This document shows, one piece after another, positions 4,732 to 61,330 of a stretch of 64,000 nt of DNA. The DNA is from Octopus vulgaris (taxonomy: Eukaryota). The position numbers were made by a program, and so were the translations under genes. The DNA is taken from NCBI GenBank assembly GCA_951406725.2, contig OX597818.1, forward strand, positions 130,014,001-130,078,000, in the 5' to 3' direction. Every line of letters begins with the position of its first letter. The stretch's first letter is position 1. The notes below the pieces were generated by a model. That model was not told the DNA's origin and made no database searches. It saw nothing but the letters and a program-made list of their open reading frames with translations.

Positions 4732-4776
4732 GTCTCTGAAGGAATATAATAAATATCCTAGAAACAGCTGTAAAAC
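4732..4776 (+). ncRNA. Degenerate minimal type-I hammerhead ribozyme motif in a Penelope-like repeat
   Basis: gtct-CTGAAG-gaatataataaatatccta-GAAA-cagctg-TA-aaac; palindromic stem III ACAGCTGT; core and stem I imperfect. Confidence 0.4.
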
Positions 4777-5148
4777 CTTCTATTTATAAATGTTCTAAAA
4801 TCTACACAGCCTTGGTTTTTTTTATCTCATTATGAAAAAAATTTTTATACACACACACTGATATATAACCTAAGTTGGACCCCTTATTTGCATAATCACC
4901 AAATCTGGAACTTAACTATGGTTTATCCATAGCACTTATTCAGCATTACCCGACACCTTTGGGTCCCAGCAACACCATTATCTCTTATATATATATATAT
5001 ATATATATATATATATATATAATAATAATAATAATAATAATAATAATAATAATAATAATAATATTACGGAGTATAACTCCAAACTTACAGGGAAAAAATT
5101 CAATTTAATATTAAATCAAATTTCACAATATAAATATATAATATATAT

Positions 5149-5403
5149 AAATTAGAGTAAAACCACTATTATGCAATTTAAACAATGATAGACATAAACC
5201 AAATCATAAATAAACAATATATAATAAGTAATATATAATATTAGGAATAAACAATAAATAATATAACTTATTATATATTGTTTATTTATTTTTGTACTTT
5301 TTGTGATCTAGTTATATGTTTTAAAATATATTTATTCTTTATTTATGATTTGGTTTATGTCTATCATTGTTTGAATTGCATAATAGTAGTTTTTCTCTAA
5401 TTT
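5149..5403. repeat. About 66-bp inverted repeat with an AT-rich spacer
   Basis: AAATTAGAGTAAAACCACTATTATGCAATTTAAACAATGATAGACATAAACCAAATCATAAATAAA versus its reverse complement at about 5338-5403 (about 3 differences); related sequence near 33040-33105. Confidence 0.85.
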
Positions 5404-5408
5404 CTATA

Positions 5409-5799
5409 TGAGTGGCTGTATGGTAAGTACATGGTTCTTACCATATGGTTCTGGGTTCAGTCCCACTGCGTGGCATCTTGGGCAAGTGTCTTCTGCTATA
5501 GCCCCGGGCCGACCAATGCCTTGTGAGTGGATTTGGTAGACGGAAACTGAAAGAAGCCTGTCGTATATATATATATATATATATATATATATATATATAT
5601 ATATGTGTGTGTGTGTGTATGTGTTTGTGTGTCTGTGTTTGTCCCCCTAGCATTGCTTGACAACCGATGCTGGTGTGTTTACGTCCCCGTCACTTAGCGG
5701 TTCAGCAAAAGAGACCAATAGAATAAGTACTTGACTAAAAGGCGGTGCTCCAGCATGGCCGCAGTCAAATTACTGAAACAAGTAAAAGAGTAAAAGAGA
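5409..5799 (+). mobile_element. SINE family A, near full length
   Basis: Same head, body, internal (TA)n(TG)n and tail as other A copies. Confidence 0.9.
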
Positions 5800-6234
5800 A
5801 AAAATAGTATATATATATATATATATATACTGCTTTTTTACTGGTTATATAATGGGGTTACTGCAAACAGCAACCACTTCTCACACCTTGCTCCTCTTAT
5901 AGGCAAGCATCTATTTGCCAAATGGCAGATTCAATAATAATGACATCCAATTCTAAGTTACAGCTACTGATATACTGAGTTCAAAACCTACCATGTCTTA
6001 ATTGTTTTTATTCACCATTTCAGGGTTGATAAAATAAATAACAGGCATGTACCCGGAGTAGGAGATAGGGTGCTGAAGCTATTTCTTTAAATATATCTCT
6101 TTCTAAATAAATTCATGACTTGGTGTCAATATGTTGAGTTTTCATCATCGTTGCAGCAGTGGGTGTGGGGTTTGCTCTCCAGCCACATGGTTCCTGGTCC
6201 AGTTCAACAACATGGTATTTTGGGCAAATACCAT

Positions 6235-6462
6235 GGCGAGCTGGCAGAAATGTTAGCACGTCGGGCGAAATGCGTAGCCGTATTTTGTCTGCCGTTACAT
6301 TGTGAGTTCAAATTCCGCCGAGGTCAACTTTACCTTTCATCCTTTCGGGGTCGATAAATTAAGTATCAGTTACGCACTGGGGTCGATGTAATCGACTTAA
6401 TACCTATGTCTGTCCTTGTTTGTCCCCTCTATGTTTAGCCCCTTGTGGGCAATAAAGAAATA
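6235..6462 (+). mobile_element. tRNA-derived SINE family B with a Meta-domain-like core, inserted in an old family A copy
   Basis: GGCGAGCTGGCAGAA...GAGTTCAAATTCC...TTTCATCCTTTCGGGGTCGATAAATTAAGTA; TSD GGTATTTTGGGCAAAT(A/G)CC at 6214-6232 and 6463-6481. Confidence 0.9.
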
Positions 6463-6979
6463 GGTATTTTGGGCAAATGCCTTTTGTACTATAGCCTAGG
6501 GCCAACCAAAATCTTGTGATAGATAGATAGATACTGGTAGATAGATTCTGAAAGAAACTTGCTCTGTGTGTGTATTTGTATCTGTGTGTGTGTGTGTCTC
6601 CTCATCTTCACATCGTGTGATAATTATAAATGAGTGTCACTGTCATACCAGCTGTGTTGTTCATTTTTGATGTTCCTGTGGGGCCAATTTAATTGACTTA
6701 ATGCCTTTACACACGGTGTTCAAATCATACCAAGCTAATCTTTGCATTCTATCCATTCAGAGCCAATAAAATAAATTACTGGTCAGATAGTGGTATTTGC
6801 ATGGAACTTTGGGCAAGTGCCTTCTACAAAAGACCCAGTTGCTCTAACAAAAGCTTTGACAGCAAAATTTGCTTGATGGAAACTGAAAGAAGTCTGTTGC
6901 AGACTTCTGCATGGTCAGCTACTGTCAAGGAATCACACCCATGTCAGCATGGAAGGAGGACATTAAATGATGATGATGA

Positions 6980-7800
6980 TATGCGTGTGTATATATATAT
7001 ATGTATTTATATATATATATATATATATATGTATTTATATATATACATATACAATATATATATATATATATATATATATATATATATATACATACGTGCA
7101 TACATATATACATAATATATACATATATAAACATACATAGTTATATAGATATATATACATGCATATATATATATATATACACACACACATATATAAATAT
7201 ATACATATATATACATGCATGCATACATACATTCAAATATATATATATATATATATATATATATATATATACATACATACATACAATCATACATACATAC
7301 ATATATACATACATTCAAATATATATATATATATATATACATACATACAATCATACATACATACATATATATTTATATATATATATATATATATATCATC
7401 ATCATCATCATCGTTTAACGTCTGTTTTCCGCGCTAGCATGGGTTGGACGGCTTATATATATATATATATATATATATATATATATATATATACATGCAT
7501 ACATACATACATACATAGATACATATATATATACATACATACATATATATATGTACATACATTATATTTATACATACATACATGTGTGTATATATATATA
7601 TATATACATATATATGTGTGTATATCTATACATATACTTAGATATATATGCATATCTATATATATATATATATATATATATATATATATGTGTATATATA
7701 CACATATATATATATATGCATACCTATACATATACATACATATTTATATATATATAGATATATAGATATATATACACACACACACATATATATAACACAC
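6980..7800. repeat. Compound (TA)n/(TACA)n microsatellite field with a short family C 3' end at 7396-7452 (-)
   Basis: Direct inspection. Confidence 0.9.
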
Positions 7801-59415: not shown

Positions 59416-59589
59416 AATATGTACACGATAGGCTTCTTTCAGTTTCTTTCTTTCCACTTATCAAATCCACTTACAATGTTTGGTTGGCCTGAAGTTATAG
59501 TAGAAGACACATGCCCAAGGTATCACAAAGTGGTACTAAATCTCAAACATAGATGTCAGGTAAATCTTAATCACAGGGCCAGATCAACA

Positions 59590-60008
59590 ACTATGATATA
59601 TTGAGTGAGTGAGAGAGAGAGAAAGAGAGAGAGAGAGAGAAAGATAGAAAGAGAGTGACTATGATATATTGAGTGAGTGAGAGAGAGAGAGTGAGAGGGA
59701 GAGAAAGAGAGTGACTATGATATATTGAATGAGTGAGAGTGAGAGAGAGGGAGTGAGAGAAAGAGAGTGACTATGATATATTGAGTGAGTGAGAGAGAGA
59801 GAGAGAGAGTGAGAGAAAGAGAGTGACTATGATATATTGAGTGAGTGAGAGAGAGAGAGAGAGAGAGAGAAAGAGAAAGAGAGTGACTATGATATATTGA
59901 GTGAGTGAGAGAGAGAGAGAGAGAGTGAGAGAGAAAGAGAGTGACTATGATATATTGAATGAGTGAGAGAGAGAGAGTGAGAGAAAGAGATGGGGAGAGA
60001 GAGAGAGC
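59590..60008. repeat. Minisatellite: ACTATGATATATTGAGTGAGT plus variable (GA)n, 7 units of about 55-68 bp
   Basis: Direct inspection. Confidence 0.92.
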
Positions 60009-60024
60009 TTACTTTTAGTTTCAA

Positions 60025-60290
60025 TCTACCACTTATTTAAAAAAAAAAAACTTCCTTCCCGAGTCACATAGATACATAGGGCCAGCTTCCTGGTTTTCAT
60101 TGTATATATATTCCATACCTGGACAGGACACGGGTCCATCACAAGATTACTCATTTTTGCCAGCTGAGTGGACTGGAGCAACGTGAAATGAAGTGTTTTG
60201 TTCAAGAACACAACACATCACCCGGTCCAGGAATCAAAGTCAAAATCTTCTGATTATGAGTCGAACACCCTAACCACTGAACCACACATC
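60025..60290 (-). mobile_element. SINE family E head (CORE-like) with a third type of 3' body, degraded
   Basis: ACTCATTTTTGCCAGCTGAGTGGACTGGAGCAACGTGAAATGAAGTG is the reverse complement of about 36792-36840. Confidence 0.8.
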
Positions 60291-60461
60291 TCCATTCCAC
60301 TTTTATTTACAAAGCATTGGTCAGCCCAAGTCCATAATACACTTGCTGCAAATCGTCAAGCTGCGAGAGTGGACTGGAAACCATAAGGCTGCACAATGGG
60401 AACCTCTCAGCTGCATAGCTATGCTGGCATTGCCACCACACCTATATACATATACAAAAAA

Positions 60462-60691
60462 GGCGGCGAGCTGGCAGACACGTTAGCACACCGGGCGAAA
60501 TGCGTAGCCATATTTCGTCGGCCGTTACGTTCCGAGTTCAAATTCCGCCAAGGTCGACTTTGCCTTTCATCCTTTCGGGGTCGATAAATTAAGTACCAGT
60601 TTCGCACTGGGGGTCGATGTAATCGACTTAATCCCTTTGTCTGTCCTTGTTTGTCCCCTCTATGTTTAGCCCCTTGTGGGTAGTAAAGAAA
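60462..60691 (+). mobile_element. SINE family B, full length and young
   Basis: GGCGGCGAGCTGGCAG...GAGTTCAAATTCC...CATCCTTTCGGGGTCGATAAATTAAGTACCAG...GTAGTAAAGAAAT. Confidence 0.95.
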
Positions 60692-60769
60692 TATATATAC
60701 ATATACACAAAAATATGTGTGTATATATGTAGGGTTTGTGATGCACACAAGAGATATAAAACTCAGCAG

Positions 60770-61330
60770 TATTCTGTTGTGTCTGGGGAGGGTCATTTTC
60801 TTTTTGTGCCTTATAATGTAACACACTCACTGGTAAAATTTCCACTTATTTCTTGTTTTTATTTTCCTAAAATTTTCGTTGCATCTTGCACGCAACGAAA
60901 GTTTTAGGAAAATAAAAATAAGAATTAAGTGGAAATTTTACCAGTGAGTGTGTTACATTATAAGGCACAAAAAGAAAATGACCCTCCCCAGACACAACAG
61001 AATATTCTTTAACACACGAACTCACATAAAGAATTTTGCAAACCAAATCCTAAAACTATATATATATATATATATATATATATATATACTGTTGTGTCTG
61101 GGGAGAGTAATTTTCTTTTTGTGCCTTATAATGTAACACACTCACTGGTAAAATTTCGACTTATTTCTTATTTTTATTTTCCTAAAATTTTCGTTGCATC
61201 TTGCAACCTTTTCAATAGTCTTGACTCTGTTCGACACAACAGAAAATAACTCTCCCCAGACACAACAGAATATGCTTCAACACACGAACTCATATAAAGA
61301 ATCTTGCAAACCAAATCCAGAAACGAAATA
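60770..61330. mobile_element. Four partial copies of a Penelope-like repeat in alternating orientation, including a 113-bp-arm palindrome
   Basis: Arms 60770-60882 and 60892-61004 (3 mismatches), (TA)n at about 61057-61088, further copies about 61089-61226 and 61233-61325. Confidence 0.75.
61182..61218 (-). ncRNA. Hammerhead-like motif with a U3-A8 core
   Basis: Minus: cta-TTGAAAA-g-gttgca aga tgcaac-GAAA-attt-tag; perfect 6-bp stem II; palindromic AAATTT. Confidence 0.5.

Follow-up and report, generated by a model that had tools for sequence, protein, structure and literature searches.

Minimal hammerhead ribozyme (min-HHR) motifs were analyzed in a 64,000-nt stretch of the Octopus vulgaris genome (OX597818.1:130014001-130078000; genome of 2.8 Gb in 227 contigs), hereafter called the window, in which a first-pass annotation had listed ten such motifs. 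These ten sites are very probably the 3' ends (pseudo-long terminal repeat, pLTR, plus tail) of eight families, seven of which are joined to coding sequence of endonuclease-containing (EN+) Penelope-like elements (PLEs), each end carrying a min-HHR motif. The presence of min-HHRs at PLE ends and the targeting of TA repeats have already been published, molluscs included, and the overall finding that numerous PLE ends with hammerheads lie in TA repeats is not new; the fixed variants of the hammerhead core described below are a modest twist to it. The additions made here are intact full-length elements with an A6U core, genome counts, links to open reading frames (ORFs) in seven families, and a family (D) that does not favor TA.

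Hammerhead motifs in the window and the genome

The base composition of the window is 36% GC, and TA, CA and ATC repeats are plentiful. A min-HHR descriptor was derived from Cervera & de la Pena 2014 (PMC4209133) and composed after the sites had been seen; it comprises the core CUGANGA or UUGANAA with an optional extra base after A9, stems I and II of at least 3 bp, a palindromic A15.1..U16.1 and H17. Forty local dinucleotide shuffles of the window served as the control. The strict descriptor matched the window twice, against a shuffle mean of 0.05, and with at most one deviation allowed it matched seven times, against a mean of 0.88 and a maximum of 4. Six of these seven matches are sites of the first-pass annotation (11153, 28193, 28700, 49485, 56538 and 61215), while the seventh, at 34120, consists of A and T only and is probably a chance match. 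The descriptor was failed by four copies, at 4737, 12059, 27926 and 55357. The first three are decayed, with three core bases missing relative to the family at 4737, stem mutations at 12059 and a G8>C change at 27926, and the majority forms of their families fit the descriptor. The copy at 55357, from family H, has only two contiguous stem I pairs, and its core is identical in 32/32 copies examined. Hammerhead-type motifs are present at all ten listed sites, each listed position being the low-coordinate end of its motif. An Rfam scan of the window gave no hammerhead among the 150 matches listed out of 588; those listed were microRNA (miRNA) or other simple-repeat matches.

In the whole genome, the pattern CYGANGAAG-N8-15-CGAAACGT occurs 18,638 times, compared with 9 occurrences of its reversed control, and the exact patterns of families B, C and D occur 17,642, 10,524 and 2,708 times, respectively, with no occurrence of any reversed control. 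The resulting figure of about 39,000 motifs, or about one per 70 kb, is a lower bound, being based on exact patterns for part of the families; the density of one per 6 kb given by the first-pass annotation holds for this window. Thousands of such motifs have likewise been reported for published genomes. Chance matching in DNA so rich in AT and repeats is hardly credible as the origin of the motifs and has been largely refuted: false positives do occur, as the A/T-only match shows, and four copies fail the descriptor, but the excesses over the shuffled and reversed controls, together with the preservation of pairing across families whose stem sequences are unrelated, argue strongly against coincidence.

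Element families and their coding sequences

DNA searches assigned the ten motifs to eight high-copy families, designated A-H, where seven or eight had been anticipated. The best copies are 97-100% identical in families A, B and H, approximately 90% in C-F and approximately 83% in G. Copies have in common a fixed 3' end, an optional tail and ragged 5' ends, most of which fall 10-150 nt before the core; inverted 5' arms are frequent. The 5' truncation, inverted 5' arms and one-sided tail expected for EN+ PLEs are thus all observed, and the same insertion layout has been described for PLEs (PMC8557442). In the majority forms of families A-G, stems I and II pair and stem III is palindromic, which agrees with the proposed conservation of pairing; in family H stem I is marginal.

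Walking upstream from the motifs led into GIY-YIG coding sequence in seven of the eight families, and in four of them (A, B and H, with the thumb alone in D) into reverse transcriptase (RT) as well, which bears out the suggested connection with the type-I hammerheads of PLE pLTRs. In loci L299 and L300 of family B, the hammerheads of two pLTRs enclose an intact ORF; direct pLTRs are shown for this one of the eight families. The B ORF encodes 1,079 amino acids (aa) from the first Met and has an RVT_1 match, its EN matches are 99-100% identical in all 150 listed, and among 30 EN-anchored copies the motif lies downstream in 27, 24 of which end in (TA)n. In family A, frames of 741-833 aa that encode RT+EN, with DKT, CxxC-E and N..CxH, lie some 570 nt upstream of the motif, and family H has a 580-aa RT+GIY-YIG frame 1.3 kb upstream. 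An RT thumb and GIY-YIG lie upstream of family D in L387/L480, a Hydra-like EN upstream of family E in 6/20 longer copies, a Neptune-like EN end 2 kb upstream of family C in one copy (L479), and a Hydra-like EN upstream of family F in one copy (L461). The homologues found are unnamed RT + PF26215 proteins.

Family A shares with the Hydra clade of Craig et al. 2021 (PMC8557442), as characterized there, DKT, the CxxC before E and the CxH after N; the endonucleases of E and F are similar to that of A, and (TA)n insertion and hammerheads are further points of likeness. The differences are that the CxCX5C linker was not seen in A and that the E core is U4C. Relative to Neptune-type EN+ PLEs, the family B ORF is longer, and its assignment was made by motifs alone.

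Several observations weigh against the identification of all these sites as PLE ends. The family A ORF gave no Pfam match and shows no Hydra-type linker cysteines, the links of families C and F are found in a single copy each and span long low-complexity DNA, and for family G no adjoining ORF was found at the 14 pattern matches walked. The clade names were assigned from motifs rather than from a tree with reference elements. Moreover, the 5' ends cluster near the motif, bystander copies included, a distribution that short master RNAs could also produce.

The last point bears on the status of the short units, which the first-pass annotation had regarded as a radiation of non-autonomous elements or solo pLTRs. 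As such dedicated units, solo pLTRs or retrozyme-like, they would have been amplified from their own short RNAs by PLE proteins. Most copies are 150-400 bp long, family G is without an ORF link, and a preprint derives animal retrozymes from pLTRs (bioRxiv 10.64898/2026.07.22.740005), all of which would suit this possibility. Against it, seven of the eight families extend into coding sequence, the 5' ends are ragged and often preceded by inverted arms, and two motifs on the same strand were found at 0/30 C loci and 0/30 D loci. Non-LTR retrozymes as portrayed in PMC7229834 and in the same preprint are likewise short non-coding units with type-I hammerheads, but they form tandem arrays with canonical hammerheads, whereas the octopus units are scattered ends, single or inverted, that are connected with PLE ORFs. 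A candidate promoter (TATA/initiator-like) upstream of the C copy L373 was rejected, being part of a separate repeat whose matches end before the C junction. We therefore consider a dedicated non-autonomous origin unlikely; because seven of the families continue into PLE coding sequence, the copies would be mainly 5'-truncated PLE ends.

A Pfam GIY-YIG search mainly retrieved another young PLE family with a 781-aa ORF; none of families A-G could be linked to its matches on the sense strand. This RT+GIY-YIG family (L236, G000:C16:20835000-20842000 and many other loci), which is absent from the window, is very young and two-ORF, has many intact copies, carries U3-A8 hammerheads in both pLTRs and has a (TA)n 3' junction. 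Of sampled words from the family B coding sequence at L300:2600-4200, 84-93% are present in sequencing runs carrying seven organism labels, which provides only a lead on its spread; no RNA run was among those listed.

Insertion sites and core variants

A (TA)n run touches an end in 8/10 window elements, the exceptions being 11153, with none, and 27926, with (TG)n, so that the location of nearly all elements in or next to (TA)n, as first described, holds for eight of them. Since (TA)6+ is no more than 300 nt away from 44% of all window positions, enrichment was tested on genome-wide copies. In family C, (TA)4+ is present at the fixed 3' end of 26/30 unselected copies, compared with 3.7% of random 25-nt intervals. 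TA occurs at most 15 nt from the query end in 23/24 copies of family F and 19/24 of family H, and at most 200 nt from the main or tail end in 28/29 copies of family A. Family G is mixed (TA within 200 nt in 11/24), and in family D, TA was found at the main end of 3/30 copies only, a few duplicate loci being counted among the 30. The suggested use of (TA)n as a landing pad thus applies to most families but not to D; a TA bias of PLE insertion is noted in PMC8557442. The upstream pLTR of family B continues into the 5' region after just 8 TA-like bases, which indicates that the long TA run belongs to the target and not to the element. At L299, L300, L236 and H loci, the element's own TA-like stretch of 6-9 nt stands exactly at the (TA)n junction, and this stretch was also seen in internal pLTRs and at the main and tail ends of H. 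The arrangement suggests that priming is assisted by microhomology, in contrast to anole Poseidon, for which a non-homologous start has been reported.

Under the PLE-end interpretation, the target, most often (TA)n, would be nicked, and reverse transcription would set out there from the 3' end of the pLTR and stop prematurely. TA-rich DNA is likely the substrate nicked by the GIY-YIG endonuclease. The RT probably has a fixed internal starting point on the element RNA, from which it reads through the uncut hammerhead, usually halting 10-150 nt beyond it, with an occasional strand switch that would produce an inverted arm. The hammerhead itself may cut only slowly, as a palindromic-stem-III dimer or with the help of protein, trimming tandem transcripts. 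According to PMC11167929, PLE RT initiates at sites within the RNA, PLE insertion in vitro is not blocked by mutation of the hammerhead, and cleavage is protein-assisted; min-HHRs are characterized in PMC4209133 as cutting weakly and as dimers. If insertion uses uncut RNA, a weakened core need not keep a family from spreading, be it the A6U of B or the U4C carried by most copies of C, E and G. Each motif-bearing copy would then derive from RNA uncut at that hammerhead, and weak cores would be cheap and may even be favored. Folding with RNAcofold favored the dimer over two monomers in 8/8 cases, by 1.8-13.3 kcal/mol, a gain that is uninformative because any hairpin self-dimer becomes more stable.

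The octopus motifs resemble the metazoan PLE pLTR min-HHRs covered in PMC4209133 in their short stem I, extra base after A9, palindromic stem III and U3-A8 variant, and further in the many families per genome and the predominance of single truncated copies. Family B is near the Acropora Neptune motif given there, with a 4-bp stem II, a tetraloop and ACGU. An Acropora Neptune-like hammerhead with U at position 6 was also observed on the metagenome contig L595, in a single copy that is possibly a sporadic mutant. Two differences from the published min-HHRs were found, namely 6-9 nt palindromes in families A, E, F, G and H, that of G being odd-numbered, and the core itself, for which the consensus in PMC4209133 is CUGANGAH as compared with CUGUNGA in B and mostly CCGANGA in C, E and G.

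A canonical CUGANGA or U3-A8 core, together with GAAA and NUH, is present in families A, F, D and H and in a minority of C, with D and H having the published U3-A8 pair. The YTGANRA-like core initially attributed to all sites does not hold for several families: B has CUGUUGA (A6U) and most C, E and G copies have CCGANGA (U4C). In family B, U occupies position 6 in 96 of the first 100 listed matches and position 7 takes all four bases, while the canonical core is found in 159/17,642 motif copies. In a tree of 103 copies, sampled canonical copies were scattered among the U6 subgroups, the pattern expected of sporadic back-mutations. Flank identity between the N7 subgroups is 63-79%, whereas the motif is fixed; as the copies were chosen by motif, this contrast suggests constraint without proving it. 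Contigs from four runs over the B motif contain no listed alternative core base, though they break at N7 and cannot show ends. U4C is the main form in family C, where the first 100 listed copies comprise 77 CCGA, 20 CTGA and 3 CCAA, and a canonical sister probably exists. CCGATGA was found in 12/17 copies of family E and CCGA in 10/14 of family G. Beside studied copies, L238:6317, L334 and L341 hold additional hammerhead families whose core is CCGANGA and whose stem III palindromes measure 9-10 nt.

The changed core letter in several abundant families likely slows or stops self-cutting, judging from the mutant data in PMC3088659, by which activity is low after position-6 changes and considerably reduced by U4C. 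It is conceivable, though we regard it as the lesser possibility, that the variant motifs (A6U, U4C and family H) do not cut at all and that the fold persists as a signal for protein binding or for priming, or simply hitchhikes. This alternative concerns function alone and is compatible with the identity of the sites as PLE ends. Besides the mutant activities and the insertion in vitro without need of cleavage, it is favored by the failure to find independent A6U families with compensated stem II, the first 100 of 590 non-B-pattern matches being almost all single-mutant B copies, and by a metagenome search for A6U motifs that gave both stems in only 2/119 matches. On the other side, U4C still supports viroid infectivity (PMC3088659), the B motif is fixed despite its diverged flanks, and N7, which is free in a working core, takes all four bases in B; the latter two points are suggestive only.

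We tentatively propose, with less than even confidence, that recently active, intact PLE lineages keep attenuating changes of the hammerhead core under constraint, A6U being group-wide in a Neptune-like group (with N7 free) and U4C being present in at least three families, two of which have endonucleases of different types. If so, what PLEs select would be either a ribozyme that is slowed or depends on protein, or a fold that does not cut and serves another purpose, and standard CUGANGA searches would overlook tens of thousands of motifs per genome; canonical descriptors do undercount the motifs described here. An intact young autonomous A6U family, together with U4C families beside canonical sisters, offers natural test pairs that could show whether cutting matters for retrotransposition. 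Our literature search retrieved no paper dealing with hammerheads of octopus PLEs or with PLE A6U/U4C cores; outside its scope lay Lunse et al. 2017, reported to describe numerous hammerhead variants of PLEs, among which A6U or U4C may already figure.

Individual copies and other features of the window

The elements of the window are non-coding, as had been noted, but longer copies of their families elsewhere are coding. No PLE coding remnant was found in the window, the sole tblastn match being an antisense reading of the family A pLTR. On the forward strand, the family E 3' end at 4718..4985 has its motif at 4730-4776 and is followed by (TA)18; the majority form of this family has the core CCGAUGA and the stem III ACAGCUGU. 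The family D 3' end with tail at 11142..11311 (motif 11150-11186) is without a TA flank and has the core CUGAAAA, the family form being UUGAAAA (U3-A8). The family F 3' end at 11878..12260 (motif 12054-12146), with TA at both sides, has the core CUGAAGA, a long stem II and the stem III ACAUAUGU.

The remaining motif-bearing copies lie on the reverse strand. The family G end at 27820..28017, with an inverted 5' arm and (TG)n at its end, contains a decayed motif (27923-27965); the family mostly has CCGACGA and the odd-numbered stem III palindrome ACUC-U-GAGU. The family B 3' end at 28064..28241 (motif 28161-28198; core CUGUUGA, A6U; stem III ACGU) is flanked by TA at both sides, as is family A at 28570..28949, which consists of a 3' end (28570-28780) and an inverted tail (28780-28949) and has a motif at 28623-28705 with the canonical core CUGAUGA, a long stem II and the stem III ACAUAUGU. 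Two family C 3' ends are present: that at 49351..49561 (motif 49455-49489) has the core CUGACGA and a stem III decayed to ACAU, and that at 56462..56615 (motif 56508-56542) has CCGACGA (U4C) and ACGU, with a long (TA)n on its 3' side. The family H 3' end at 55212..55365 (motif 55319-55365) belongs to a near-identical young family and has the core UUGAAAA (U3-A8), the stem III AGCGCU and a weak stem I. The family D 3' end with inverted tail at 61089..61331 (motif 61182-61218) has UUGAAAA (U3-A8) and the stem III AAUU. A head-to-head pair of family D ends at 60765..61056 (no strand assigned), absent from the first-pass list, is coreless, both ends being cut within stem II; in Rfam the pair scored as a plant miRNA-like hairpin, below the gathering score.

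Two further features were observed. Positions 16501-17182 hold three 187-bp tandem copies with 97% identity, within which the hammerhead descriptor has no match. At 45965-46438 (+) there is a 157-aa reading frame, which we take to resemble a LINE/RTE-type reverse transcriptase fragment.

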